DNA of 14,009 nucleotides, from the UHGV virus genome UHGV-0193479; one strand, given 5' to 3'. The translations under genes were made by a program, and so were the position numbers. Source of the DNA: a virus. Below, in pieces: positions 1,333-14,009 of this stretch (within the stretch, counting starts at the first letter, position 1; each line of letters starts with the position of its first letter). Under the pieces are notes generated by a model. It ran no database searches and was not told the DNA's origin. It worked only from the letters and a program-made list of their open reading frames with translations.

Positions 1333-1749
1333 ATGACAGAAAAAGAAAAGCTGGTCGCCCGCCTGAATGAACTTGGGACCCAGCTTAACCGCGAGGTCAG
1401 TACCAGCGGCACCATTCAGGAACTGACGATGCGTATTGCTGAGCTTGAAGAGGAACTGGATGGCAATGCCGGGTCAGTTGACGGTGAAAACGGCGTGCAG
1501 AATGCTTCCGACAGCACCGACAGCACCGACAGCACCGACAACAATGTTGCTAACGTGGCAAAAGTAAAAACGGAATCGGCCACAACGGGTGACCTGGTAT
1601 CAGTAGAAACGCTGGCCACCCTGCATATTGACGCTCTGCATGCCACGCGTAACGAGCCGGTATCTATCGTAGAGCCTGGTGTGATTATCCGCGTATCTGA
1701 ACAGGATGCCGACGACTTGATCGCAAAGGGGCTGGCTTTCGAAGTCTGA
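1333..1749 (+). CDS. FI: DNA-packaging / head assembly protein, lambda gpFI-like
   Basis: Translation MTEKEKLVARLNELGTQLNREVSTSGTIQELTMRIAELEEELD… and C-terminal …LHIDALHATRNEPVSIVEPG… resemble lambda FI (MTKDELIARLRSLGEQLNRDVSLTGTKEELALRVAELKEELDD…LHTDALHATRDEPVAF…). Start chosen at ATG 1333 (GGAG at 1321..1324, 8-nt spacer) rather than the upstream in-frame ATG 1297, which lies inside the hairpin. Confidence 0.88.
   Translation: MTEKEKLVARLNELGTQLNREVSTSGTIQELTMRIAELEEELDGNAGSVDGENGVQNASDSTDSTDSTDNNVANVAKVKTESATTGDLVSVETLATLHIDALHATRNEPVSIVEPGVIIRVSEQDADDLIAKGLAFEV
1510..1540 (+). repeat. Tandem 9-bp repeat (GACAGCACC x3 plus a partial copy) inside FI, encoding (DST)3D
   Basis: Seen in sequence at 1510..1536 as three perfect copies, followed by GACAACAAT. 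Falls in the acidic, low-complexity linker of FI. Confidence 0.85.
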
Positions 1750-1759
1750 AGGGGGCCAC

Positions 1760-2113
1760 ATGGCTGATTTCGATAATCTCTTTGACGAGGCCATGTCGCG
1801 AGCTGATAGCGCTATCCGTGGTGTGATGGGCACAGAGGCAAAGGTGATGTCAGGCGCTTTGTCAGGTGCCACCCTGGTCGGTGTATTCGATGATCCAGAA
1901 AATATCGGATATGCCGGTGCCGGGATTCGTGTTGAAGGAACCAGCCCGACCCTGTTTGTGGAAACCGCCACTGTCAGGCAGCTGCAGCGTATGGACACGC
2001 TGACGATTAACGGTCGGCAATTCTGGGTTGAACGTATTGGTCCGGATGACTGTGGCTCCTGTCATATCTGTCTGGGTAACGGCTCTCCACCTGCATCTTC
2101 GCGTCGCCGTTAA
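1760..2113 (+). CDS. FII: Head-tail joining protein, lambda gpFII-like
   Basis: 117 aa; MADFDNLFDEAMSRADSAIRG…VFDDPENIGYAG…DDCGSCHICLGNGSPPASSRRR closely parallels lambda FII (MADFDNLFDAAIARADETIRG…DDGGSCHLWLGRGVPPAVNRRR). RBS AGGGGG upstream. Confidence 0.95.
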   Translation: MADFDNLFDEAMSRADSAIRGVMGTEAKVMSGALSGATLVGVFDDPENIGYAGAGIRVEGTSPTLFVETATVRQLQRMDTLTINGRQFWVERIGPDDCGSCHICLGNGSPPASSRRR

Positions 2114-2122
2114 GGAGCGCAT

Positions 2123-2677
2123 ATGTCCATAAAAGGCCTTGAACAGGCCATAGAAAACCTTAACAGCATCAGCAAAACGGCTGTTCCGCGGGCATCGGCG
2201 CAGGCCGTTAACCGCGTGGCAAACCGGGCCGTCAGCCGCAGCGTGGCAGTCGTATCAAAAGATACGCGCGTACCGCGAAAACTGGTAAAGCAACGCGCCA
2301 GGGTGAAGAGTGCGACGGTCAATAGACCTCGTGCACTTATCCGGGTAAACCGGGGAAATTTACCGGCCATTAAACTCGGTACCGCAAGCGTGCGACTTTC
2401 CCGCAGAAAACGGGACAAGAAAGGGGCCAACAGCGTTCTGCGCATAGGGCCATTTCGTTTTCCGGGCGGCTTTATCCAGCAACTTAAAAATGGTCGCTGG
2501 CATGTCATGAGGCGGACTTCAAAACCTCGTTACCCCATTGAAGTGGTCAGCATCCCGCTGGCAGCTCCATTAACTACGGCATTTAAAGAAGAACTGCCGA
2601 AGCTCATGGAGTCAGATATGCCCAAAGAGCTCCGGGCATCCCTTACCAACCAACTCAGGTTAATTCTGACACGATGA
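2123..2677 (+). CDS. Z: Minor tail protein Z (tail completion), lambda gpZ-like
   Basis: 184 aa; MSIKGLEQAIENLNSISKTAVP…FIQQLKNGRWHVM…PLTTAFK… matches lambda Z (MAIKGLEQAVENLSRISKTAVP…FIQQLKNGRWHVMQR…). RBS AAGGAG at 2113..2118. Confidence 0.95.
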   Translation: MSIKGLEQAIENLNSISKTAVPRASAQAVNRVANRAVSRSVAVVSKDTRVPRKLVKQRARVKSATVNRPRALIRVNRGNLPAIKLGTASVRLSRRKRDKKGANSVLRIGPFRFPGGFIQQLKNGRWHVMRRTSKPRYPIEVVSIPLAAPLTTAFKEELPKLMESDMPKELRASLTNQLRLILTR

Positions 2678-3072
2678 AACACAGCGATATTCGCAAGGTG
2701 ATTATTGACGCGCTGGAAAGCGCGATTGGTACTGATGTCATTTATTTTGACGGCAGACCTGCAGTGCTCGAAGAGGGTGATTTTCCCGCTGTTGCCGTCT
2801 ACCTGACAGATGCGGAATACACAGGGGAAGAACTGGACGCCGATAGCTGGCAGGCCATTCTGCATATCGAAGTCTTTCTTGAGGCTCAGGTACCTGATTC
2901 TGATCTGGATGACTGGATGGAGACGAGAGTGTATCCGGTTCTCGCAGAGGTTCCGGGGCTTGAATCTCTTATCACCACAATGGTTCAGCAGGGCTATGAC
3001 TACCAGCGCGATGACGATATGGCGCTGTGGAGTTCTGCCGACCTGAAATATTCCATTACTTACGACATGTGA
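2674..3072 (+). CDS. U: Tail terminator protein, lambda gpU-like
   Basis: 132 aa; [16 protein letters not shown]…[45 protein letters not shown]… matches lambda U (MKHTELRAAVLDALEK…[45 protein letters not shown]…). ATGA overlap with Z stop indicates translational coupling. Confidence 0.95.
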
Positions 3073-3079
3073 GGACCCT

Positions 3080-3817
3080 ATGGCCACACCAAACCCGCTG
3101 GCACCAACAAAAGGTGCTGGTACCACCCTCTGGGTTTACACCGGAACTGGTGATCCATACGCCAATCCGCTTTCAGACGTTGACTGGCTGCGCCTGGCAA
3201 AGATTAAAGACCTGCAGCCCGGAGAACTGACAGCTGAATCGGAAGATGACACCTACATCGATGATGAGAATGCCGACTGGACATCAACGATGCAGGGGCA
3301 GAAATCAGCCGGTGAAACAAACCTGACGCTCGCATGGATGCCGGAGGATTCCGGTCAGCAGGACCTGGTGAACTGGTTCGATGAAGGCACCGTGAAGGGG
3401 TATAAAATCAAATATCCGAATGGTGTTGTCGATGTCTTTAAGGGCTGGGTGAGCAGTCTCGGCAAGACCATCTCGTCTAAAGAGGTCATGACCCGCACGG
3501 CAAAAATCACCAACAACGGCAAACCATCACTGGCAGAAGACAGTGGTGCCGCGCCGATTGCTGTCACGGGGATCAGCCTGGATAAATCCACTGCAGCTGT
3601 TGCGGTCGGTGAAACTGTGCAACTGGTTGTATCTGTTCTTCCGGCCAGTGCGTCAGATAAATCCTTCCGCGTATCGTCAGCTGACCGGGCCAAAGCCACA
3701 GTTACGGCTAACGGTAACACACTGACGGTCACCGGCGTGGCGGCAGGCACCGTCGAAATCATCGTTATGAGCAATGACGGTAACTTTGTGGCGATCTGCA
3801 AAGTCACTGTTTCCTGA
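3080..3817 (+). CDS. V: Major tail tube protein, lambda gpV-like, with C-terminal Ig-like (Big_2-type) domain
   Basis: 245 aa; [44 protein letters not shown]… matches lambda V ([44 protein letters not shown]…). C-terminal …[37 protein letters not shown]… parallels the lambda V Ig-like domain. Confidence 0.95.
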
Positions 3818-3821
3818 TAAC

Positions 3822-3837
3822 CGGGGCGCGAGCCCCG
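3822..3837 (+). promoter_or_regulatory. All-GC hairpin in V-G intergenic region (no U-tract; possible attenuator or mRNA stabiliser)
   Basis: Seen in sequence: CGGGGC-GCGA-GCCCCG (6-bp G:C stem, GCGA tetraloop of GNRA type), followed by TTCCCCCGGAG containing the G gene RBS. Confidence 0.4.
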
Positions 3838-3853
3838 TTCCCCCGGAGTAATT

Positions 3854-4276
3854 ATGTTTCTAAAGAGCGAACTGCTTGAATGCAACGGCAGCAGCGTCAC
3901 ATTGTTCCAGCTTTCGGCGCTTCAGCGTATTGAATACCTCGAATACCTGAAGCAGCTGGAGGCAGTTGAAGCTGGCGATTTTCAGGCGGCCATCACCCTC
4001 ACCGTAAAAAGTGGGGCGTTCCTCGTGGCGATGTCACTCTGGCACGGCCACGAACTGAAAGGCTCCCAGGGAGAAAATGCGGCGGCGGAAGTGGCAAAGA
4101 TTCAGGATGAGGTCATGCAGTCATGGCCGACCGAACTGGTTGCCGAAGCGGAATATAAGGTGAAACTCCTGTCCGGGATGATTGCGCCTGTCATTGAAGA
4201 ACCGACTTCATCCGGTGAAGAACGTAATGATCCCGCTGAACCCGTTACTGCGGAAAAGTCCTCGCCAGTGAGCTGA
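3854..4276 (+). CDS. G: Tail assembly chaperone, lambda gpG-like
   Basis: 140 aa; MFLKSELLECNGSSVTLFQLSALQRIEYL…GAFLVAMSLWHGHE…PAEPVTAEKSSPVS matches lambda G (MFLKTESFEHNGVTVTLSELSALQRIEHL…GAFLVAMSLWHNH…PAEPVSAGKCSTVS). Confidence 0.93.
   Translation: MFLKSELLECNGSSVTLFQLSALQRIEYLEYLKQLEAVEAGDFQAAITLTVKSGAFLVAMSLWHGHELKGSQGENAAAEVAKIQDEVMQSWPTELVAEAEYKVKLLSGMIAPVIEEPTSSGEERNDPAEPVTAEKSSPVS
4252..4258 (+). other. Candidate -1 programmed ribosomal frameshift heptamer (GGAAAAG) for G-T fusion protein
   Basis: T reading frame is the -1 frame relative to G and is open from 4240 (after TGA 4237..4239) while G ends at 4276. The only slippery-like motif in the 4240..4276 overlap is G GAA AAG at the codons corresponding to the lambda G GGA AAG site (A-E-K here vs A-G-K in lambda, from memory). 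Confidence 0.5.
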
Positions 4277-4284
4277 AATTTGCC

Positions 4285-4605
4285 ATGAAACTGGCGCGTG
4301 AGTTCGGTCGCCCGGACTGGCGTGCCATGCTTGCTGGCATGTCCTCTACGGAGTACGGCGACTGGAAAATCTTCTACCAGGACAATTACTTTCATGATGC
4401 GCAGCTGGACGCACATTTCTCCGGCTTGCTCTACACCATCTCAACCCTGTTTTTTGCCGATCCGGAGTTAACCCCGGACAGTTTCAGCATTCTTTCCTCT
4501 GCACCGGAAGCCATCGACATCGATGATCCGGATGACGATACGCTGATGGCGAAGGCTGCAGGTATTTCAGGAGGCGTGCGCTATGGCCCAGACGGCAGTC
4601 GGTGA
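4285..4605 (+). CDS. T: Tail assembly protein T-like; probably expressed mainly as a G-T fusion by -1 frameshift, approx. join(3854..4258,4258..4605)
   Basis: 106-aa ORF from first ATG, in the -1 frame relative to G and immediately downstream. Position between G and the tape measure gene matches the conserved G/GT arrangement of lambdoid phages. 3' end overlaps H start by 23 nt. Confidence 0.85.
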   Translation: MKLAREFGRPDWRAMLAGMSSTEYGDWKIFYQDNYFHDAQLDAHFSGLLYTISTLFFADPELTPDSFSILSSAPEAIDIDDPDDDTLMAKAAGISGGVRYGPDGSR

Positions 4606-7099
4606 TCTGGTCGTTAACCTTGACGTTAACTCGACAAAATTCAACGAGCAGCTCAGCTACGTCAAAAAAGAATTAAAACAGACCGGCAATACGGCAAACG
4701 ATGAAGCGTTACGTATCCAGCAGTCCTTCAGCCGCCAGGAGAACGCCGCGCGTAAGGCCGGTATTTCAGTGGGTCAGTATAACGCAGCGATGCGTATGCT
4801 CCCGGCGCAGTTTACTGACGTGGCCACGCAGCTGGCGGGTGGGCAGAACCCCTGGCTGATTCTGCTTCAGCAGGGCGGTCAGGTTAAGGACTCCTTTGGC
4901 GGGATCATTCCGACATTCCGGGCGTTGCTGGGGACGATTTCCCCGTTGATGGTCGGCATTGGTGCATTGTCCGTTGCAACGGGCGCGTTGTTCTATGCCT
5001 GGTACCAGGGCTCTTCCACTCTGTCTGATTTCAACAAAACGCTGGTACTGTCGGGGAACACAGCCGGACTGACAGCTGACCGCATGCTGGCACTGGCGCG
5101 GAACGGACAGGCAGCGGGGCTAACGTTCAACCAGACCAGTGAAGCCCTGACCGAGCTTATCAATGCAGGTGTGCGTACTGGCTCGCGCTTTGATGAAATG
5201 AGCCAGGCGGTGGCGCGGTTTACTGATGCCTCCGGCGTGCCGGTGGAGAAAGTCGCTGCAGCCTACGGCAAGCTCGCAACTGACCCGACATCGGGCCTGA
5301 TCGCGATGGCCCAGCAGTTCCATAACGTTACCGCAGAACAGATTGCCCATGTGGCGCAGCTGCAGCGTGCCGGTGATGAGGCTGGCGCACTGCAGGCGGC
5401 TAACGAGGCGGCTACAGCCGGATTCAACGATCAGACCAAAGCCATCCGCGACAATATGGGGACGATAGAGTCTTCAGCGGACTCCCTGAAGCGCGCCTTC
5501 AAGTCGATGTGGGATGCAGCCCTCGATATTGGCCGACCTGACACCGCGCAGGAGATGGTGGCAAAAGCCGAAGCCGCGTTCAAAAAAGCTGATGAAATCT
5601 GGAACCTGCGTAAAGGTGACCGATATGTCAATGCTGAGGCTCGCGCCCGATTCTGGAATGACCGCGAAACGGCCAGGCTTGCGCTGGATATGGCGCAGCA
5701 GCAGGCGGGAATTGCCAGGGCGAACGAAGAGAATGCATCGCGCGAAGCGGCTGCGGAATCGGATCGCCAGAAGTATGCTGCGCAGGCACAGGCAAACTAT
5801 GCCAAAACGCAGACGGCACTGGAGAAATACACGGCCAGGCAGAGCGAGCTCAACAAGGCGCTGAAAGAGGGGCGGATCCTCCAGGCTGACTACAACATCA
5901 ACCTGGCTGCCGCGAAAAAAGAGTACGAAGACACCCTTAAAAAGCCGAAGAAGACCCCGGCAATCAGAACCCCCGCAGGTGCCCGTGCCACCGATACGGC
6001 CAGTGCCCAGACGCTGGAGCTACAGACACAGCTGCGCACCCTGCAGGAGCATAAGAGCATCAATGACACCATCAGCCAGCAGCGTCAGGAGCTGTGGCGT
6101 CAGCAGTCCCGCTTTACGGTTCTGGAAGAGGCCGCGAAGACCCGAACGCTTTCTGCTGAGGAAAAATCCCTGCTGGCCAGTAAAAGTGAGGTGCTTTCCC
6201 GTGCGGAGCTGAATGCGAAGCTTGGCGATCAGATAGTGGCGCAGGAGCGGCTTAACCGCCTGCAGGATACGTCCCAAAAATACGTCACGCAGATCGGCGA
6301 GAAAACCCGAGCCCTTGCGGAAAGTGCTGGTATGAGCAGTCGTGCAGCACAACGCCGCAATGAGGAGGCCCAGCTTCTTCAGGGCTGGAAAAATGGTGGC
6401 GGTTCGGAGAACGACGCTGGTTATCAGAATGAGCTGCAGGCGCTGCAGGCGTATTACGCCGAGCAGGATAAGCTGCGGGACGACTGGCAATCCGGGGCCA
6501 AATCCGCATGGGCAGATTATGTTGATTCCGCTTCAGATGCTTATGGCCAGATGAAGTCGGTTGCCACCAGTACGTTTGATGGCATCGGGCAGAATATGGC
6601 AGACATGCTGACACGCGGAAAGGCTGACTGGGCTGACTTTACCCGCTCCACGCTCTCCATGCTGACACAAATTCTGCTGAAGCAGGCAATGACCGGACTG
6701 GTAGATTCAGCCTCCACGGCGCTGGGGTTTGCCAGCGGGGGATTCACCGGTTCGGGTGGGAAATATGAACCCGCAGGTGTCGTTCACCGTGGCGAATTTG
6801 TTTTCACCAAAGAGGCTACCAGTCGGATCGGCGTCGGCAATCTTTACCGGATGATGAAAGGCTATGCCACGGGAGGGTATGTCGGGGGCGGTGGTACAGG
6901 CCCGGCTGCAGCACCTTTCGGTGTCAGTGTATATGCCCCGGTGACGGTCGAGAATGCTTCCGGTAACGCACAGCAGCAAAACGACGGAGACAGGCTGGGT
7001 AAGGCGTATGAGCAGGTGATTAATAAATCTGTCAACGAGGGTATCGCCAGGGCAATCCAGCCCGGTGGGCTTATCTGGAATGCGACCAATCGCAGGTAA
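4583..7099 (+). CDS. H: Tail tape measure protein, lambda gpH-like
   Basis: 838 aa; VGDLVV…AGISVGQYNAAMRMLPAQFTDVATQLAGGQNPWLILLQQGGQVKDSFGG… and C-terminal GGFTGSGGKYEPAGVVHRGEFVFTKEATSRIGVGNLYRMMKGYATGGYVG match lambda H over essentially the full length (lambda H recalled as 853 aa). RBS AGGAGG at 4569..4574. Confidence 0.97.
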   Translation: MAQTAVGDLVVNLDVNSTKFNEQLSYVKKELKQTGNTANDEALRIQQSFSRQENAARKAGISVGQYNAAMRMLPAQFTDVATQLAGGQNPWLILLQQGGQVKDSFGGIIPTFRALLGTISPLMVGIGALSVATGALFYAWYQGSSTLSDFNKTLVLSGNTAGLTADRMLALARNGQAAGLTFNQTSEALTELINAGVRTGSRFDEMSQAVARFTDASGVPVEKVAAAYGKLATDPTSGLIAMAQQFHNVTAEQIAHVAQLQRAGDEAGALQAANEAATAGFNDQTKAIRDNMGTIESSADSLKRAFKSMWDAALDIGRPDTAQEMVAKAEAAFKKADEIWNLRKGDRYVNAEARARFWNDRETARLALDMAQQQAGIARANEENASREAAAESDRQKYAAQAQANYAKTQTALEKYTARQSELNKALKEGRILQADYNINLAAAKKEYEDTLKKPKKTPAIRTPAGARATDTASAQTLELQTQLRTLQEHKSINDTISQQRQELWRQQSRFTVLEEAAKTRTLSAEEKSLLASKSEVLSRAELNAKLGDQIVAQERLNRLQDTSQKYVTQIGEKTRALAESAGMSSRAAQRRNEEAQLLQGWKNGGGSENDAGYQNELQALQAYYAEQDKLRDDWQSGAKSAWADYVDSASDAYGQMKSVATSTFDGIGQNMADMLTRGKADWADFTRSTLSMLTQILLKQAMTGLVDSASTALGFASGGFTGSGGKYEPAGVVHRGEFVFTKEATSRIGVGNLYRMMKGYATGGYVGGGGTGPAAAPFGVSVYAPVTVENASGNAQQQNDGDRLGKAYEQVINKSVNEGIARAIQPGGLIWNATNRR

Positions 7100-7104
7100 C
7101 AGTT

Positions 7105-7452
7105 ATGACGATAGAAACATTCCCCTGGGGCATTAAGGTTTCCAGCCAGCCCACCGAGGGAAGCAAAGACACAGTCAGGAAGGTTCAGTTCGGCGACGGG
7201 TACGCACAGGTGAGCGGCTCCGGCCTGAATGATGAGATTCGTACCTATGAATATTCCTTTTCAGGGGATCCGACTACAGCGAATGAAATTCACGCTTTCC
7301 TTCGGCGGCATAAAGTGAAGTCGTTTATTTTCACTCCGCCTTTCGGCGATACCGCGCTGTGGCGTGTCGAGGCTGACACGCTCAAAAAGGTGGTTAAAAA
7401 CGTAAAAGTGATAACCGTAACCGCAACGTTTGAACAGGCATTTGCACCATGA
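7105..7452 (+). CDS. M: Minor tail protein M, lambda gpM-like
   Basis: 115 aa; …VRKVQFGDGYAQ…GLN…TY…SF…TPP… parallels lambda M (…VRKVRFGDGYSQRAPAGLNANLKTYSV…SFLWTPPYE…). Position directly after H. Confidence 0.92.
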   Translation: MTIETFPWGIKVSSQPTEGSKDTVRKVQFGDGYAQVSGSGLNDEIRTYEYSFSGDPTTANEIHAFLRRHKVKSFIFTPPFGDTALWRVEADTLKKVVKNVKVITVTATFEQAFAP

Positions 7453-8204
7453 GTCTTAATGCTGATTATCAAAAACTCGAGCCGGGCAATGAAGTCCGGC
7501 TTTTTTCTGTCGATGGCACGGCGTTCGGTATGTCAGATGTACTCCGCTTCCACGCACATAACATCGCGCATACCCCGGAAGAGATTGAGGCTGCAGGCGG
7601 GGATGAGAATAAACTTCCAGCGAAGTCCATCTGGTGGCAGGGTGAGGAGTATAAAGCCTGGCCGTGTCAGATTGAGGGGATCGAGGCTTCAACCTCGGGA
7701 AGTAGTGCCCAGCCAAAACTTTCGGTTGCTAACCTCGACAGTTCGATCACCGCGCTTTGCCTGGCTTACGACGATATGCTGCAGGCGAAGGTGACGATAC
7801 ATGACACCCTTGGTAAGTATCTCGATGCGAGAAACTTCACCGGAGGCAATCCGACAGCCGATCCGACCCAGGAGAAGCTGAAGGTTTTCTACATCGATGC
7901 AAAGAGCAGTGAAACCAATGAAGTTGTTGAGTTCACACTATCCAGCCCTATGGATCTGCAGGGGCTGATGATACCTACCCGCCAGCTTCATTCTCTGTGC
8001 ACATGGTGCATCCGGAACAAGTACCGAACCGGCGATGGCTGCGACTATGCCGGTACGCGCTATTTCGACAAAAACAACAACCCGGTAAGCGATCCGTCGC
8101 TGGATGAATGCAACGGCACGCTGACGGCCTGCAAACTCCGATTCGGCGAAGATAACGAACTCTCGTTTGGTGGCTTCCCGGGCACGTCTTTGATCAGGAG
8201 TTGA
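7449..8204 (+). CDS. L: Minor tail protein L, lambda gpL-like (C-terminal Cys cluster consistent with the [4Fe-4S] site)
   Basis: 251 aa; ATGA overlap with M stop. C-terminal cysteines CTWC…DGCDYAG…DECNGTLTACKLRF correspond to the lambda L motif …CTWTYRGDECGY…DKCSKCLSGCKFR (recalled). Confidence 0.93.
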   Translation: MSLNADYQKLEPGNEVRLFSVDGTAFGMSDVLRFHAHNIAHTPEEIEAAGGDENKLPAKSIWWQGEEYKAWPCQIEGIEASTSGSSAQPKLSVANLDSSITALCLAYDDMLQAKVTIHDTLGKYLDARNFTGGNPTADPTQEKLKVFYIDAKSSETNEVVEFTLSSPMDLQGLMIPTRQLHSLCTWCIRNKYRTGDGCDYAGTRYFDKNNNPVSDPSLDECNGTLTACKLRFGEDNELSFGGFPGTSLIRS

Positions 8205-8205
8205 T

Positions 8206-8916
8206 ATGCGTCAGAAAACCATCGATGCGATTATGGCGCATGCTGCAGCTGAATATCCTCATGAGTGTTGCGGCGTGGTGGCGCAGAAAAGCCGCGTTGA
8301 ACGTTATTTCCCGTGCCGGAATCTTGCCGAGGCGCCGGAGGACAATTTTGTCCTTTGCCCCGAAGACTACGCAGCTGCTGAGGACTGGGGAACGGTGATC
8401 GCCATCGTTCACAGTCACCCTGACGCCACAACGCAACCGAGCGAACTGGATAAAGCGCAATGCGACGCAACGCTTTTACCCTGGCATATTGTGAGCTGGC
8501 CGGAGGGGGATTTACGCACCATCCAGCCGCGCGGAGAACTGCCGCTGCTGGAGCGTCCGTTTGTGCTTGGACACTTCGACTGCTGGGGGCTGGTAATGAG
8601 CTATTTTCGGCAAACGCATGGTATCGAACTCCACGATTACCGGGTTGATTATCCCTGGTGGGAAAACGAATATCCGGACAACTTCTATCAGGATTGCTGG
8701 TATGAGTGCGGTTTCCGGGAATTCGACGGGCCACCGAAACCCGGCGATATGGTGATCATGCAGGTCCAGGCTGATAAGTGGAACCACGCGGGAATTCTGC
8801 TGGAGGGAAATATGCTGCTGCACCACCTGTACGGACATCTGAGCCAGCGCGTGCCGTATGGTGGCTACTGGCAGGAAAGGACGATGAAGATCGTCAGATA
8901 TAAAACGCTTCTATAG
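8206..8916 (+). CDS. K: Tail assembly protein K-like; N-terminal JAB/MPN (JAMM) metalloprotease motif plus C-terminal NlpC/P60-type Cys-His peptidase domain
   Basis: 236 aa; JAMM signature E…HSHPDATTQPSELD (E-x(n)-H-x-H-x7-S-x2-D) and downstream DCWGLV…H typical of NlpC/P60. Position between L and I as in lambda. RBS AGGAG at 8197..8201. Confidence 0.93.
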   Translation: MRQKTIDAIMAHAAAEYPHECCGVVAQKSRVERYFPCRNLAEAPEDNFVLCPEDYAAAEDWGTVIAIVHSHPDATTQPSELDKAQCDATLLPWHIVSWPEGDLRTIQPRGELPLLERPFVLGHFDCWGLVMSYFRQTHGIELHDYRVDYPWWENEYPDNFYQDCWYECGFREFDGPPKPGDMVIMQVQADKWNHAGILLEGNMLLHHLYGHLSQRVPYGGYWQERTMKIVRYKTLL

Positions 8917-8937
8917 CCCACTCAGGTGGGTTTTTTT
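8917..8937 (+). terminator. Rho-independent terminator after K
   Basis: Seen in sequence: CCCAC-TCAG-GTGGG followed by TTTTTTT (8931..8937), starting directly after the K stop codon (TAG 8914..8916). Confidence 0.7.
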
Positions 8938-9081
8938 AAACCCCGCATTTCACCGCGCACCGCACGCGCAATTCAAACCAAGAACCTTTCAGGATGCACC
9001 TTGAGGAACCGGCTGGCTGTCGGAGCCTTCTTGGGGCCGTTTTCCTGTGCGACAAGGTTCATCACTAAAAGGTAATCCGAT

Positions 9082-9591
9082 ATGCAATATCCAACCGTAT
9101 CTGTAAACGGCGTATCAGTTCGTGTCGATAACGAAGGACGTTATAATCTTAATGATCTCCACGCCGCAGCGGTGGCTGAAGGCAAAGCCACTGAATCACA
9201 GCGACCAGGTGAGTTTCTCAAAACCAAGCAAGTAAGGCGATTTGTTCAAGCCTTGAGCGATGCGAAGAAAATCGCATCGGTTATGACAATTAAGGGGGGA
9301 CCATTTCAGGGCTCCTGGGGGCTTGAACTTATCGCTATACGCTATGCAGCCTGGCTCAATCCGCTTTTTGAAATCAAAGTCTATGAGACATTTCAAATGC
9401 TAATGCGTCGCGGGTTCGATGCCATGTCTCGCTTGAATAAAATCGACCATGTGATTAACACCGAAACCAAAGCGATCAGCCAGTGCGCCAGCCAGATGGC
9501 CAAGTGGGGTGTTGGTGGCCGCAAGCGGCTTCTACACACAGCACGGGAGCGTGTAGCTGATGAAGTACAGATGTATCTCCCCGGTATTTAA
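9082..9591 (+). CDS. KilA-N domain protein (cargo/moron gene, function unknown)
   Basis: 169 aa. N-terminal region …VSVRVDNEGRYNLNDLHAAA…RPGEFLKTKQVRRFVQAL…GSWGLELIAIRYAAWLNPLFEIKV… fits the KilA-N pattern (I/V-R-x-D-x-x-G-x-x-NLNDLHKA…WL…K). Inserted between K and I, where lambda has no gene. Confidence 0.7.
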   Translation: MQYPTVSVNGVSVRVDNEGRYNLNDLHAAAVAEGKATESQRPGEFLKTKQVRRFVQALSDAKKIASVMTIKGGPFQGSWGLELIAIRYAAWLNPLFEIKVYETFQMLMRRGFDAMSRLNKIDHVINTETKAISQCASQMAKWGVGGRKRLLHTARERVADEVQMYLPGI

Positions 9592-9679
9592 AGGGCGCGT
9601 GAACCAAGATAACATTCGGTTTTGCTACCGCTCGATCCCTGCTACTCTTTTGGCAAAATTGACCAAAGGGGATAGGGAT

Positions 9680-10093
9680 ATGAAAAGAATTTTAGTTTTT
9701 ACCTCCATCTTAATGGTTGCCGGTTGTGCAACTAAGCCGGTGACAAATGAACAAGCACAGGATGTTCCTGCAAAACAGGTTATCAGCAATACACTGCTAG
9801 TAAAAAAAGAAGGGACTGGCAAGGTAATAATCAAACGAGACTCTGGTTTTATGGGCAGCGCCTGCATGACCCGAGTTTATGTTGATGGCAAGGAGGTCGC
9901 AGACTTAGATACAGCTCAAAAGGTAACGGTCTATCCCAAAATTGGAGATCATATCTTTAGCGCTTGGCCCAAAGGTATGTGTGGCGGAGGCATGAGCGAA
10001 CAGTCGGGTAAGGTGACAGATACTGGGGTTTTGATGTTTAGAGTTGGTTACGGAACCAACGGTGATTTTGGTATCTACCCTACAGCATTTTGA
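9680..10093 (+). CDS. Predicted lipoprotein (cargo/moron gene); signal peptide with lipobox VAG|C, Ala at +2
   Basis: 137 aa from ATG 9680: MKRILVFTSILMVAGCATKP… has n-region MKR, hydrophobic h-region and lipobox V-A-G-C. GGGGA RBS-like purine run upstream. The ORF-track start 9560 overlaps the KilA-N gene 3' end in another frame and precedes the signal peptide, so 9680 is preferred. Confidence 0.72.
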   Translation: MKRILVFTSILMVAGCATKPVTNEQAQDVPAKQVISNTLLVKKEGTGKVIIKRDSGFMGSACMTRVYVDGKEVADLDTAQKVTVYPKIGDHIFSAWPKGMCGGGMSEQSGKVTDTGVLMFRVGYGTNGDFGIYPTAF

Positions 10094-10112
10094 ATGCAGC
10101 AATTATATATAA

Positions 10113-10135
10113 CCTCGCTCAGGCGGGGTTTTTTA
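10113..10135 (+). terminator. Rho-independent terminator after lipoprotein gene
   Basis: Seen in sequence: CCTCGC-TCAG-GCGGGG (6-bp stem with one G-U wobble) followed by TTTTTTATT; 20 nt after the lipoprotein stop and 17 nt before the I start. Confidence 0.7.
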
Positions 10136-10151
10136 TTATTAAGAGGTTTAT

Positions 10152-10742
10152 ATGTCTGAAGCAATGACTCGAATTGAGCTCGGCGGCGAACCCGGTAAAA
10201 TATTTGGTAAAACTCATTGGCGACTTATCAGTAAAGTTTCTGAAGCAGGTGTAGCACTCGCAAAAACAATCACCGGGTTTGAAAGTTATATGGTAAACAG
10301 CAAGCGCCGCGGACTAACCTTTGCCATTTTTAAAGGAAAGAAAAACATAGGAGTTGATGACCTAGGTTTTCCGGTAACTGGTGAAGTGGTCAGGATTGTA
10401 CCGGTTATCATCGGAAGCAAAAAGGCTGGTTTACTTCAGACAATATTGGGTGCTGTTATTGTTGCAGTAGGTGCCATTGCTACATTTGGTTTTGCCCAGG
10501 CTTGGGGTGTAAATGTAATGATGGCTGGTGGAGCTATGATGGCGGGTGGCGTCGTCCAGATGTTATCTCCTCAGCCAACCGGATTAGCCAGCAAACAAAG
10601 TGCAGATAACCGTGCATCGTATGCGTTTGGCGGGGTAACCAACACTGCAGCGCAAGGCTACCCAGTGCCTCTGCTTTATGGTAAGCGTCGAATCGGCGGA
10701 GCGATTATTTCTGCCGGAATTTATGTCGAAGATCAACAGTAA
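10152..10742 (+). CDS. I: Tail assembly protein I-like (lambda gpI family)
   Basis: 196 aa; glycine/alanine-rich hydrophobic segment GAVIVAVGAIATFGFAQAWG…MMAGGAMMAGGVVQMLSPQP and C-terminal …PVPLLYGKRRIGG… parallel lambda I (…GAAAIAGSFFTAG…LGGVAQMLAPK…VLPVLYGEMRVGS…). Position between K and J. Clearly more divergent from lambda and more AT-rich than the flanking tail genes. Confidence 0.88.
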   Translation: MSEAMTRIELGGEPGKIFGKTHWRLISKVSEAGVALAKTITGFESYMVNSKRRGLTFAIFKGKKNIGVDDLGFPVTGEVVRIVPVIIGSKKAGLLQTILGAVIVAVGAIATFGFAQAWGVNVMMAGGAMMAGGVVQMLSPQPTGLASKQSADNRASYAFGGVTNTAAQGYPVPLLYGKRRIGGAIISAGIYVEDQQ

Positions 10743-10779
10743 ATTAATTAACTTATTAGCTGATAGGCAGGAGAAAACT

Positions 10780-11097
10780 ATGACTTTAGAAGAGCGCATG
10801 AGCATGCTTGAGGCAACCATCGCGAGCCTGCAGGTGGAGATAGCAGAGCTGCATAACCCGGCAATCGTCAATTCCGCCATTCAGAACGCACTACGGCCAG
10901 GTGGCGCTATTCATTCGACCATCACCGGTAATGGCTGGAGTTTGCGAGTAAAGGAGGGAAAGATTTCGCAGGGTGATGCAGGGGTTTTCGGTGGAACGGT
11001 AACAGCGGCCCAGAATGAGGCCGCTAAAACTCATGAAGAAATATTCAATGAAAAGCTCGATTTAATTATTTCTTTGATGCCACCTCTAAAACTTTAA
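10780..11097 (+). CDS. Hypothetical small protein (105 aa), predicted N-terminal coiled coil; cargo ORF between I and J
   Basis: ATG 10780 preceded by AGGAG (10769..10773). MTLEERMSMLEATIASLQVEIAELH… has heptad-like pattern. No similarity to a lambda protein recognised. The ORF-track start 10678 would overlap the I gene 3' end and is less likely. Confidence 0.5.
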   Translation: MTLEERMSMLEATIASLQVEIAELHNPAIVNSAIQNALRPGGAIHSTITGNGWSLRVKEGKISQGDAGVFGGTVTAAQNEAAKTHEEIFNEKLDLIISLMPPLKL

Positions 11098-11326
11098 GGA
11101 TGCGCGTGAACGCATCAATTGTGTGCGGATCATTACGTGCAGCTGATTCTGGGATTTTTGCTTGCCCTGCCTGATAGTTTTTAGTCAGAGCATCGAGTGC
11201 GCCTGGCCGGGCAATGTCCAGTAATTTCACAATGTCCGATAGAATCAGGCCAGTTGCAATTTCATGCGTAAGCAGCTTTTGTTTAAGCTCTGCCACTTCT
11301 TTTTCCAGTTCTAACATCGAACCCAT
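11066..11326 (-). CDS. Hypothetical small protein (86 aa), predicted N-terminal coiled coil; antisense to the late operon
   Basis: Minus-strand ORF MGSMLELEKEVAELKQKLLTHEIA… with a strong RBS on the minus strand (AAGGAG, 6-nt spacer, ATG at complement of 11324..11326). 3' end overlaps the convergent + ORF by 32 nt. Only convincing minus-strand gene in the window. Confidence 0.55.
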   Translation of the reverse strand: MGSMLELEKEVAELKQKLLTHEIATGLILSDIVKLLDIARPGALDALTKNYQAGQAKIPESAARNDPHTIDAFTRILKVLEVASKK

Positions 11327-11457: not shown

Positions 11458-11480
11458 AGCCACCTTTGGGTGGCTTTTTT
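11458..11480 (+). terminator. Rho-independent terminator immediately upstream of J
   Basis: Seen in sequence: AGCCACC-TTTG-GGTGGCT followed by TTTTTT (7-bp perfect stem); ends 11 nt before the J start codon. Orientation-specific: on the minus strand the A-run precedes the hairpin. Confidence 0.6.
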
Positions 11481-11491
11481 ATGGGCGCAAT

Positions 11492-14009
11492 ATGGCTACA
11501 GATAAAGTGTTAAAAGGCCGCAAGGGCGGCAGCTCAAGTTCCCGAACCCCTACCGAACAGCCTGATGATCTGCAATCTGTAGCGAAGGCAAAAATCCTCG
11601 TTGCGCTTGGGGAAGGGGAGTTTGCTGGACAGCTCACCGGCAAAGATATCTACCTGGACGGAACAGCGCTGGAGAATGCTGACGGCTCCCAAAACTTCAG
11701 CGGGGTAACGTGGGAGTTTCGCGCGGGAACGCAGGCGCAAAAATATATTCAGGGTATTCCCGGTACCGAAAACGAGATCAGCGTAGGAACTGAGGTATCA
11801 AGTGCCACAGCCTGGACGCGCACGTTTACCAATACGCAGCTTTCAGCAGTTCGCCTGCGTCTTAAATGGCCCTCGCTTTTCAAACAGGAAGACGACGGCG
11901 ATCTGGTGGGTTACTCGGTCAATTATGCGATTGACCTGCAGACTGACGGCGGCACATGGCAGACGGTACTCAATACCAGCGTGACCGGCAAAACGACGTC
12001 TGGTTATGAGCGCAGCCACCGTATCGATTTACCGCAGGCTGGCAGCACATGGACAATACGTCTGCGTAAGATTACCTCTGACGCCAACAGCGCGAAGATC
12101 GGCGACACGATGATGCTGCAGAGCTTCACCGAGGTGATTGACGCCAAACTGCGCTACCCGAACACCGCGCTGCTCTACGTCGAATTCGACTCAAGCCAGT
12201 TCAACGGCTCTATTCCTCAAATTTCATGCGAACCGCGCGGCCGCGTTATCCGCGTTCCAGATACCTACGACCCTGAAACCCGCACTTATAGCGGTACATG
12301 GACCGGTGCGTTTAAGTGGGCATGGACGGATAACCCTGCGTGGATTTTTTACGACCTGGTTGTTTCTGACCGGTTCGGCCTTGGGCACCGTTTGACCGCT
12401 GCGAATATTGATAAATGGACGCTTTATCAGGTTGCTCAGTATTGTGATCAGATGGTACCAGACGGCAAAGGGGGCAACGGTACAGAACCACGCTATACCT
12501 GCAACGTGTACATTCAGGACCGGAACGACGCCTACACAGTCCTGCGTGATTTTGCCGCTATCTTCCGTGGCATGACCTACTGGGGCGGGGATCAGATTGT
12601 GGCCCTGGCTGACATGCCGCGCGATGTTGATTACAGCTATACGCGCGCTAACGTTGTTGGCGGTCGCTTCACCTATTCGAGCAGCACCACGAAAAGCCGC
12701 TACACCACAGCGCTGGTTTCATGGTCAGACCCGGGTAACGCTTATGCCGACGCGATGGAGCCGGTATTTGAGCAGGCGCTGGTGGCGCGGTACGGCTTCA
12801 ATCAGCTGGAAATGACAGCCATCGGCTGCACCAGGCAGTCAGAGGCGAACCGAAAGGGGCGCTGGGGTATTCTCACCAATAACAAGGATCGCGTTGTTTC
12901 GTTTGATGTCGGGCTGGACGGAAACATTCCGCAGCCGGGCTACATCATCGCCGTGGCAGACGAGCTGCTTTCCGGAAAGGTTATGGGCGGCCGCATCAGC
13001 GCCGTTAACGGTCGCGTTATCAAACTTGACCGCGTAGCTGATGCAGCACCAGGTGATCGCCTTATTCTCAACCTGCCTTCCGGAGCGTCGCAGAGCAGGA
13101 CCATTCAGGCCGTGAACGGGGAATCAGTCACAGTCACCACGGCATACAGTGAGACGCCACAGGCCGAAGCTGTTTGGGTGGTTGAATCTGACGAGCTTTA
13201 CGCGCAGCAGTATCGTGTTGTCAGCGTTTCCGATAACAATGATGGCACTTTCTCGATTACCGGCGCTTTGCACGATCCGGATAAATATGCGCGTATCGAT
13301 ACCGGTGCCATTATCGACCAGCGGCCAATAAGTGTAATTCCGCCCGGTAATCAGTCCCCGCCAGCTAATATCGCGATCAGTTCGTTTTCTGTCGTTCAGC
13401 AGAATATCAGCGTTGAGACCATGCGCGTCAGCTGGGACCAGGCGAAAAATGCTATCGCGTATGAGGCACAGTGGCGTCGCAATGACGGGAACTGGGTGAA
13501 TGTGCCGCGCAGCTCCACCACGTCATTCGATGTTCCGGGGATTTATGCAGGACGCTACCTGGTTCGCGTGCGTGCCATCAATGCCGCCGAAATTTCATCT
13601 GGGTGGGGCTATTCAGAAGAGAAAACGTTGACGGGTAAAGTGGGAAACCCACCGAAGCCGGTTGGCTTCATCGCTTCTGAAAACGTGGTATTCGGTATCG
13701 AGCTGAACTGGGGATTCCCGGCGAATACCGAAGACACGCTGAAGACGGAAATTCAGTACAGCCTGACCGGTAGCGAAGATGATGCAATGCTGCTGGCCGA
13801 TGTGCCTTATCCGCAGCGCAAATATCAGCAGATGGGTCTTAAGGCAGGGCAGATTTTCTGGTATCGCGCGCAACTGGTCGACAGAACGGGAAACGAGTCC
13901 GGGTATACCGACTGGGTGCGAGGTCAGGCCAGCATCGATGTTTCCGATATCACCGATGTGATCCTGGAGGAGATCAAAGACTCCGCTACGTTTAAAGATC
14001 TGATTGAGA
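11492..14009 (+). CDS. J: Central tail fibre / host specificity protein, lambda gpJ-like (3'-truncated by window edge)
   Basis: Open frame from ATG 11492 to the window end with no stop (checked at start, middle and end), about 839 codons. …VAKAKILVALGEGEFAG…, …LRYPNTALLYVEFDSSQFNG…, …RTYSGTWTGAFKWAWTDNPAWIFYDLV…, …YQVAQYCDQMVPDGKGGNGTEPRYTCNVYIQ… are collinear with lambda J (…CYPNTALVGVQVDSEQFG…, …RQYSGIWDGTFKPAYSNNMAWCLWDML…, …GQYCDQSVPDGFGGTEPRITCNAYL…). Absent from the ORF track only because it has no stop in the window. Confidence 0.95.
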   Translation, partial: MATDKVLKGRKGGSSSSRTPTEQPDDLQSVAKAKILVALGEGEFAGQLTGKDIYLDGTALENADGSQNFSGVTWEFRAGTQAQKYIQGIPGTENEISVGTEVSSATAWTRTFTNTQLSAVRLRLKWPSLFKQEDDGDLVGYSVNYAIDLQTDGGTWQTVLNTSVTGKTTSGYERSHRIDLPQAGSTWTIRLRKITSDANSAKIGDTMMLQSFTEVIDAKLRYPNTALLYVEFDSSQFNGSIPQISCEPRGRVIRVPDTYDPETRTYSGTWTGAFKWAWTDNPAWIFYDLVVSDRFGLGHRLTAANIDKWTLYQVAQYCDQMVPDGKGGNGTEPRYTCNVYIQDRNDAYTVLRDFAAIFRGMTYWGGDQIVALADMPRDVDYSYTRANVVGGRFTYSSSTTKSRYTTALVSWSDPGNAYADAMEPVFEQALVARYGFNQLEMTAIGCTRQSEANRKGRWGILTNNKDRVVSFDVGLDGNIPQPGYIIAVADELLSGKVMGGRISAVNGRVIKLDRVADAAPGDRLILNLPSGASQSRTIQAVNGESVTVTTAYSETPQAEAVWVVESDELYAQQYRVVSVSDNNDGTFSITGALHDPDKYARIDTGAIIDQRPISVIPPGNQSPPANIAISSFSVVQQNISVETMRVSWDQAKNAIAYEAQWRRNDGNWVNVPRSSTTSFDVPGIYAGRYLVRVRAINAAEISSGWGYSEEKTLTGKVGNPPKPVGFIASENVVFGIELNWGFPANTEDTLKTEIQYSLTGSEDDAMLLADVPYPQRKYQQMGLKAGQIFWYRAQLVDRTGNESGYTDWVRGQASIDVSDITDVILEEIKDSATFKDLIE

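Follow-up and report, generated by a model that had tools for sequence, protein, structure and literature searches.

A lambdoid prophage carries, between its tail genes K and I, a small gene for a predicted outer membrane lipoprotein, and the account to which we lend slightly better than even credence is that this gene travels as a mobile moron cassette whose product protects the lysogen by way of a conserved component of the cell envelope. The gene occupies positions 9680 to 10093 (plus strand) of the window, by which we mean the entire 14,009-nucleotide (nt) stretch of viral DNA that was analyzed, and encodes a protein of 137 amino acids (aa) that belongs to PHROG 890. As prophage accessory genes go, it is of an ordinary kind: a moron-encoded envelope lipoprotein whose family is very widespread.

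The window covers the late region of this lambdoid prophage. The major capsid protein gene (262 to 1287) is followed by head-tail joining genes, the gene for tail tube V with its Big_2 end (3080 to 3817), the G/T genes, the tape measure gene H (4583 to 7099), M and L, and tail gene K (8206 to 8916), whose product carries JAB and NlpC/P60 domains. Directly 3' of K stands a terminator-like hairpin with a T-run (8915 to 8932, plus strand; 7-bp stem, -10.3 kcal/mol, z -2.1), which is the left border of an accessory insert comprising a KilA-N domain gene (9082 to 9591, plus strand; Pfam KilA-N E value of 2.6e-15; phrog_129) and the lipoprotein gene. Tail gene I (10152 to 10742) and two small open reading frames (ORFs) come next, and then J, which begins at 11492 and runs off the end of the window, ruling out the idea that J is missing or decayed. 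The KilA-N gene is a separate accessory gene in the same K-I gap and does not form part of the lipoprotein cassette; it is missing from most of the loci in which the lipoprotein gene lies between K and I, and it stands 3' of the lipoprotein gene in two others (L066 and L070). Over its entire length the window is 97.6% identical to a prophage of Escherichia coli VREC0864, the annotation of which has the same gene order and places a cor gene 3' of J. Pseudocitrobacter faecalis DSM 27453 carries an identical lipoprotein and closely similar K, KilA-N, I, and J genes. The tape measure there is a different one, which shows the region to be mosaic.

The open frame containing the lipoprotein gene extends from 9560 to 10093, and the 137-aa product has its conserved start at the internal ATG of this frame (9680), as all full-length homologues begin at a Met that matches this codon. 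A Shine-Dalgarno-like AGGGGA, read from the sequence, lies 7 nt 5' of the ATG (9667 to 9672, plus strand), and an alignment of upstream regions revealed that the GGGATAGGGAT block at the ribosome-binding site is kept across insertion contexts. The upstream in-frame ATG at 9560 overlaps the KilA-N gene, and its use accounts for the versions of 171 to 193 aa reported by some gene callers (for example, P0001, with 177 aa).

The N terminus reads MKRILVFTSILMVAG followed by CATKP. The predicted signal peptide (residues 1 to 15) and Cys16, the predicted site of lipidation, together span 9680 to 9727 (plus strand), with the Cys16 codon at 9725 to 9727. All the parts of a lipoprotein signal are present, namely, an n-region with K2 and R3 (M-K-R), a hydrophobic core (ILVFTSILM), and a V-A-G-C lipobox ending at Cys16. 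Pfam LPAM_1 matches residues 1 to 17 with a score below its cutoff (15.2 versus 20 bits). Alignment of 32 homologues showed Cys16 in every one of them and a conservation of at least 90% for each of G15, A17, T18, and P20. Ala17 and Thr18 occupy the +2 and +3 positions, so that the Lol avoidance signal, an Asp at +2, is absent; the +2 sorting rule is established for E. coli. From these features, lipidation and an outer membrane location are very probable. The original prediction of an outer membrane lipoprotein whose signal has Ala at +2 thus agrees with the lipobox, the invariant Cys16, the conserved A17, and the +2 rule. It had also counted three further Cys residues in the mature part, where there are two: the whole protein contains three (C16, C62, and C101). 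Neither C62 nor C101 varies within the close family, as would suit a disulfide formed in the periplasm. The mature lipoprotein would consist of 122 aa, with a mass of about 13 kDa and a predicted pI of 8.5.

The protein had been described as one that could not be placed in a known family. We found that it matches the PHROG 890 profile, named "lipoprotein," from end to end (E value of 2.1e-51, 174 bits; residues 1 to 137 on profile positions 1 to 136 of 136), and this is its sole PHROG match at an E value of ≤0.01. The homologues in phages HK639 and mEp390 are annotated as "lipoprotein"; the window protein is 65% identical to HK639 gp16, 39% identical to gp31 of Vibrio phage H20, and 32% identical to mEp390 gp17. 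Another member is gp47 of the Klebsiella phage-plasmid pJN2-26. PHROG 890 members have in common their length, the lipobox, the two Cys residues, and the motifs KRD, CGGG..E, and RxGYG, and the window protein differs from the others in nothing substantive.

The family is both large and strongly conserved. The window lipoprotein has 108 close relatives, and a profile search against 1.84 billion cluster representatives (clusters at 50% identity) returned 1,574 at an E value of ≤1e-3 and 875 at ≤1e-10, nearly all of them 130 to 145 aa long. Longer family members (161 to 291 aa) contain no informative extra domain, and most look like miscalled starts. Across the mature part of 57 alleles the median dN/dS is 0.066, indicating strong purifying selection. 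The invariant positions are K52-R53-D54, G56, G59, C62, G99, C101, G103, E107, R121, G123-Y124-G125, and the C-terminal F137, and they hold in Enterobacterales, Vibrio, Nitrosospira, Geomonas, and deltaproteobacterial metagenome-assembled genomes (MAGs), so that conservation spans the Gamma-, Beta-, and Deltaproteobacteria. A single Klebsiella allele occurs on 679 contigs. Given the PHROG 890 match, the 108 relatives, the 1,574 cluster representatives, and the low dN/dS, this is a real, constrained gene, far beyond a chance ORF.

Beyond PHROG 890, the window protein scored above the cutoff for nothing in Pfam, NCBIfam, and PADLOC scans. No PADLOC-DB 2.0 family matched it at an E value of ≤0.1, and a sequence search of PDB chains gave no match at an E value of ≤10. 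A remote relationship to DUF2846 (PF11008), whose members are likewise small and often annotated as lipoproteins, is suggested by matches in 12 of 53 distant relatives (approximately residues 41 to 127; best E value of 1.3e-7). The scores itemized for relatives were 18 to 23 bits against a gathering cutoff of 34.3 bits, and the window protein itself fell short of that cutoff, with no match to DUF2846 at an E value of ≤0.1. Bd1399, the one DUF2846 protein discussed in the literature, has since been moved to DUF4360 (PMC10792529). In the literature on phage morons and lipoproteins, DUF2846, and HK639-, mEp390-, and H20-like phages, we found no functional study of any PHROG 890 member. The window protein is a new member of a catalogued family that has a descriptive name only.

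An AlphaFold2 model built from the 32-sequence alignment was confident (pLDDT of 89, pTM of 0.82) and consists of a signal helix followed by an eight-strand β-sandwich, with the N-terminal segment (residues 17 to 47) ordered as well. Structure prediction, which had been put forward as a check on the gene's role, gave a transthyretin-like architecture, but this predicted fold is generic; it would indicate a binding module and nothing further. In the Foldseek search against the PDB, no FhuA-Llp entry was among the best 50 matches. TssJ and other small transthyretin-like outer membrane lipoproteins are counted among the closest known systems.

We then considered where the gene is found, using about 110 loci with a family gene, onto which the tail proteins of the window were mapped. 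The lipoprotein gene is co-oriented with the tail genes throughout, and the slots that it fills are not equivalent, amounting to five or more positions in the tail operon. Most frequent is the slot between K and I (62 loci, including the window, mEp390, and Pseudomonas aeruginosa phages), followed by that between H and M (14 loci, the HK639 type) and that between I and J (5 loci: L030 to L033 and L054). The gene lies between M and L at one locus (L082), and in Yersinia prophages it lies between T and H, which is the classical moron slot of HK97 gp15. In the HK97-like phages compared, only gene I matches in this region, and the lipoprotein gene is absent from most lambdoid phages. At one locus with the gene in the K-I gap (L076), it adjoins a colicin M homologue (Pfam E value of 6e-65) and a YebF-like gene.

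Family members also occur well outside tail operons. In the H20-like phages of Vibrio anguillarum, a gap of 15 nt separates the stop codon of a cI-type repressor gene from the start of the lipoprotein gene, which is on the same strand. As this gap leaves no room for separate signals, the position resembles the rexAB-like slot that has been described after cI (PMC7067206). A P2-like prophage has the gene at its end, after gene D, and SSU5-like phage-plasmids have it in the maintenance region; we counted 435 plasmid records with a family gene, mostly nonmobilizable Klebsiella and E. coli replicons of ~110 kb. In Vibrio alginolyticus the gene lies in an integrase-plus-Rep element of ~5 kb, in a metagenomic island it stands beside Prim-Pol and Mrr genes, and in Nitrosospira it is immediately 5' of a SIR2 and HerA pair. 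The association with defense genes comprises three loci.

Alignment of the 90 nt 5' of the start codon across four different slots gave a candidate promoter for the gene. Apart from the ribosome-binding block, the sole invariant upstream positions are the TG, TA, and T of the motif TGnTAnnnT, and the 14 upstream regions in the alignment, which represent four insertion contexts, all have TG, T-12, A-11, and T-7. An extended -10 promoter recognized by sigma-70 is defined by exactly these positions, with the TG at -15/-14. The predicted element of the window (TGcTACTCT, 9640 to 9648, plus strand) has its TG at 9640 to 9641 and its hexamer, TACTCT, at 9643 to 9648, 32 nt before the ATG; the TAGGAT found at other loci is a stronger hexamer. 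Of 54 distinct upstream regions, 44 have the motif between -50 and -30, represented by 12 sequence variants; none of the 217 distinct upstream regions of genes I, J, K, L, and M from the same loci has it at that distance. A strict two-hexamer sigma-70 scan found no promoter 5' of the lipoprotein gene because the -35 region is poor, and the motif, an in silico prediction, emerged solely from the cross-context alignment.

The 3' side of the gene is equally well marked. An intrinsic terminator lies 17 nt after the stop codon (10111 to 10140, plus strand), with an 8-bp GC-rich stem at 10111 to 10130 followed by TTTTTATTATT (-12.9 kcal/mol, z -3.2). A hairpin and T-run within 5 to 40 nt of the stop were present in 60 of 75 distinct contexts regardless of insertion site. 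Upstream of the gene, a degenerate hairpin at 9596 to 9640 is unstable in the window (z 0.18), and the equivalent in three other loci (L011, L027, and L060) is a clear terminator. Since the window has no stable terminator between them, the KilA-N and lipoprotein genes may be cotranscribed. The GC content of the lipoprotein gene is 0.442, compared to 0.51 to 0.58 for the tail genes.

Morons have been described as genes in or beside late operons that come with a promoter and a terminator of their own, a deviant GC content, and a patchy distribution (PMC3594210). Taken together, the promoter motif (a predicted one), the terminator, the deviant composition, and the movement of the gene among slots conform to this textbook definition. 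The same features, along with the position after cI in H20, bear out the accessory, lysogenic-conversion type of organization that had been proposed for the gene. HK97 gp15 and lambda bor, lom, and rexAB have the architecture predicted for the lipoprotein cassette, and two of its positions coincide with theirs, the Yersinia prophages having it in the exact gp15 slot and the H20 phages in the rexAB-like one. The proteins themselves are unrelated: gp15 is an inner membrane protein, Lom is a β-barrel, and Bor belongs to a different lipoprotein family. The promoter motif and the post-cI position in H20 make it likely that the gene is expressed in lysogens. In many loci with the gene between K and I, it begins only ~35 nt after K, so that late cotranscription alone could explain its expression.

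The location of the gene beside tail genes had suggested a role like those of Cor, Llp, or Bor. Cor (of phages phi80, N15, and HK022) and T5 Llp are superinfection exclusion lipoproteins that inactivate FhuA, and Llp does so by binding FhuA from the periplasmic side (PMC9586334). They resemble the window protein in being phage-encoded, periplasm-facing outer membrane lipoproteins with genes beside those for tail or receptor-binding proteins, the location of the window protein being a predicted one. If the likeness extended to mechanism, the lipoprotein would jam the periplasmic face of the phage's own receptor, preventing both superinfection and the loss of progeny to cell debris. The genomic position beside tail tip genes, the documented binding of FhuA by Llp, and late cotranscription with the tail genes, which would suit the protection of progeny, all speak for such a role. 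By homology, the part of the comparison that concerns Cor is confined to the signal peptide. When the family alignment was compared by hhalign with the Cor of L001, only 18 signal peptide columns aligned (probability of 33%), and the mature domain of this Cor has ~60 aa, about half the 122 aa of the window protein. We could rule out membership in the Cor family, as the mature domain has no homology to Cor. Membership in the Bor/Iss family was ruled out as well; the protein has no Pfam Lambda_Bor match at an E value of ≤0.1, which upholds the earlier remark that its mature part is unlike Bor.

A protein that blocks the phage's own receptor would be expected to track the receptor-binding end of J, and the family alleles do not do so. 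In a comparison of the 39 loci at which the K, I, J, and lipoprotein genes are all complete, the identity of the lipoprotein correlated with that of K and I (Spearman coefficient of 0.67 for each) far better than with that of the C-terminal 250 aa of J (0.16). Lipoproteins that are at least 97% identical were found with J C termini that are 33 to 100% identical to one another (median of 53%). In the closest relative of the window, the cor gene 3' of J already provides an FhuA blocker; cor stands in this position in only seven loci, this relative included. In addition, the hosts of PHROG 890 span a range far wider than that of the FhuA-dependent phages and share no specific receptor, and family genes are present in a P2-like myovirus, in the maintenance regions of phage-plasmids, and in nonphage islands. 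The decoupling from J is compatible with the blocking of a receptor used by other phages. We concluded that an accessory gene of the lysogeny type is what the data describe, but that blocking of the phage's own receptor is disfavored by the decoupling from J, the cor gene of the closest relative, and the purifying selection; we regard receptor jamming as improbable. Together with the conservation across proteobacterial classes, the decoupling from J, the co-occurrence with cor, and a dN/dS of 0.07 favor a conserved target over a phage-specific surface receptor.

Given these results, we propose a self-contained cassette in which the lipoprotein gene would be preceded by a weak extended -10 promoter and a ribosome-binding site and followed by an intrinsic terminator; recombination may have carried this cassette from one temperate phage or other mobile element to another. 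The lipoprotein would be exported by Sec and lipidated on Cys16 and, without an Asp at +2, would be sent by the Lol system to the outer membrane, where a compact β-sandwich of ~105 aa, probably held by a C62-C101 disulfide, would face the periplasm. In lysogens, it would be made from its own promoter or, in the Vibrio H20 phages, from the repressor transcript, and late in infection it would also be made by read-through of the tail operon. Our best guess is that the lipoprotein binds some conserved component of the envelope and that this component is not the surface receptor of the phage itself. Such binding would shield the lysogen from attack through the envelope, most probably by stopping other phages from entering once they have adsorbed and possibly also by countering agents active in the periplasm, bacteriocins among them. 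Protection is favored because nearly all carriers of the gene are temperate phages or mobile elements, because the gp15 and post-cI slots are known for exclusion genes, and because defense genes adjoin it in the few nonphage loci examined. A protective or exclusion function, judged as a claim of its own, seems to us a serious candidate that falls somewhat short of an even chance.

The main rival to protection is that the gene is a lysogenic conversion factor in the manner of bor or lom, contributing to host fitness or virulence through serum resistance, adhesion, permeability, or stress tolerance and having no role in competition between phages. The cassette features and the envelope location fit this explanation equally well, strong purifying selection would suit a conserved host target, and the gene is very common in clinical Enterobacterales, as illustrated by the Klebsiella allele on 679 contigs and the 435 plasmid records. 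The protein bears no similarity to Bor or Lom, however, and the family is found equally in environmental Nitrosospira, Geomonas, deltaproteobacterial MAGs, and marine Vibrio phages, in which serum resistance would be irrelevant. Its nonphage neighbors, moreover, are of the defense type and are not virulence genes. We therefore consider a fitness role to be unlikely, if still deserving of serious attention. An orphan immunity protein directed against a toxin that acts in the periplasm (for instance, a bacteriocin, an effector of type VI secretion, or a muramidase of phage or host origin) is a minor rival. A small, periplasm-facing β-sandwich lipoprotein (as predicted) on mobile elements would be appropriate for such a task, and the colicin M homologue and YebF-like gene at L076 are in keeping with it, yet we rate its probability as low, a little under that of receptor jamming.

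The remaining alternative is that the protein serves the phage cycle itself, as an o-spanin-like component of lysis or as a factor in tail assembly or structure. Co-orientation with the tail operon, in which the gene is embedded in most loci, would be expected of such a protein, and o-spanins are likewise outer membrane lipoproteins (PMC6139136). Absence from most lambdoid phages, five or more nonequivalent positions, and presence in nonphage elements are all difficult to reconcile with a phage-cycle function of either kind. An exported lipoprotein cannot take part in the assembly of tails in the cytoplasm, and we rejected a tail structural protein on the grounds that the product is exported, the gene is optional, and its position is unstable. 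We likewise rejected the o-spanin reading: the gene has no adjacent i-spanin or membrane protein partner (its neighbors being K or KilA-N and I), it lies outside the lysis cassette, its product is modeled as a folded β-sandwich and not as a short, extended o-spanin, and HK639 and mEp390 are listed with two-component spanins of their own (PMC6139136). A phage-cycle role of any sort is accordingly very improbable.

If we return to protection of the lysogen as the preferred reading, its broadest form would make PHROG 890 a very widespread and hitherto unrecognized class of exclusion or defense lipoproteins that sit on the inner face of the outer membrane, act on a conserved component, and block genome delivery by diverse phages or other envelope-crossing weapons, with the cassette spreading among tail operons, immunity regions, phage-plasmids, satellites, and defense islands across the Proteobacteria. 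We put this generalization forward tentatively and think it rather unlikely to hold in full.

Whichever function applies, the biology itself is unsurprising, and the abundance, conservation, clean cassette, and small size of the gene make it a good and inexpensive experimental target. Genes of this sort can also be recognized within late operons by a simple mark, the combination of a conserved extended -10 motif and a terminator. What a lysogen can withstand in the way of phages, bacteriocins, and host defenses is decided by prophage accessory genes that act on the envelope. PHROG 890 is unusually common: it comprises about 1,570 clusters and is found on hundreds of phage-plasmids of Klebsiella and E. 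coli and in many prophages of clinical Enterobacterales. If host fitness turns out to be what the lipoprotein serves, its gene would join the conversion genes of the bor or lom type. Should it instead impose a general block on entry, it would represent a mechanism apart from the receptor jamming of Cor and Llp and would bear on which phages are chosen for therapy against Klebsiella, Enterobacter, and E. coli.

The region around the lipoprotein cassette is mosaic. When window positions 8206-10742 were compared with two related prophages, the KilA-N and lipoprotein genes were 100% identical to those of L001 (Escherichia coli VREC0864), whereas gene I was only 89% identical. Against a Pseudocitrobacter prophage (L084), identity was 97 to 100% from K to J, but only about 25% in the tape measure gene.

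In the window, the lipoprotein gene shares the K-I gap with a KilA-N domain gene (9082-9591, plus strand; Pfam E value 2.6e-15; phrog_129, "transcriptional regulator"). Most loci with the lipoprotein gene between K and I do not have the KilA-N gene, and in two others (L066 and L070) it lies 3' of the lipoprotein gene; it is cargo separate from the latter. No promoter was recognized in the 150 nt scanned upstream of the KilA-N gene. Because an in-frame ATG lies upstream of the lipoprotein start (window 9560-9679), some automatic gene callers report the lipoprotein as 171 to 193 aa, and these extended calls overlap the KilA-N gene. The 177-aa representative of the lipoprotein's 90% cluster, P0001, is a mis-start of this type. 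At the other end of the gene, the last three codons (window 10082-10090, plus strand) encode T-A-F. In a 32-sequence alignment of closer relatives the terminal Phe never varies, and the Thr-Ala before it is at least 90% conserved; this ending may have a purely structural role or may be a tail that another factor, such as a PDZ protease or BAM, recognizes.

Across the loci carrying relatives of the lipoprotein, the tail-operon gaps that hold its gene behave as accessory-gene hotspots. Other cargo occupies such gaps in L027 (5174-8001), L011 (2041-4447), L080 and L091 (both 2076-8001), L060 (8411-9664), L071 (8411-9825), and phage HK639 (5891-6909). Examples of cargo include a cI-like helix-turn-helix repressor with antirepressor-like genes, a Fic/DOC protein, a YafO-family toxin (according to the HK639 annotation), a 769-aa fiber-like protein, and small lipoproteins that belong to a second family (L076, 1543-1926; L080, 7541-7990). 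In L076 (IMGVR_UViG_3300048929_000477, 1543-3266), what separates K from the lipoprotein gene is in effect a bacteriocin module within a prophage tail operon. It contains a 270-aa colicin M homologue (Pfam Colicin_M, E value 6e-65), a divergently oriented YebF-like gene (E value 4e-14) that may confer immunity to this homologue, and a further small lipoprotein.

The I-J interval of the window looks like a second accessory insert, with two small ORFs, one at 10678-11097 (plus strand) and one running antisense to the late operon at 11066-11326 (minus strand), followed by a terminator-like hairpin with a T-run just 5' of J (11458-11475). The two ORFs match phrog_22477 and phrog_23209, to which no function is assigned, and among the loci examined the minus-strand ORF is present only in L001 and L007.

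In Nitrosospira multiformis Nl18 (L092, 8790-12323), genes for a SIR2_2-domain protein and a HerA/DUF87 ATPase lie directly 3' of the family member. These two genes make up the SIR2-HerA antiphage system, and the setting is therefore a defense island rather than a prophage tail. In L001, the closest relative of the window, the gene for the exclusion lipoprotein Cor is found 3' of J (19138-19371), past the point corresponding to the window end. It is therefore likely that phages of this type depend on FhuA and have two different envelope lipoproteins.
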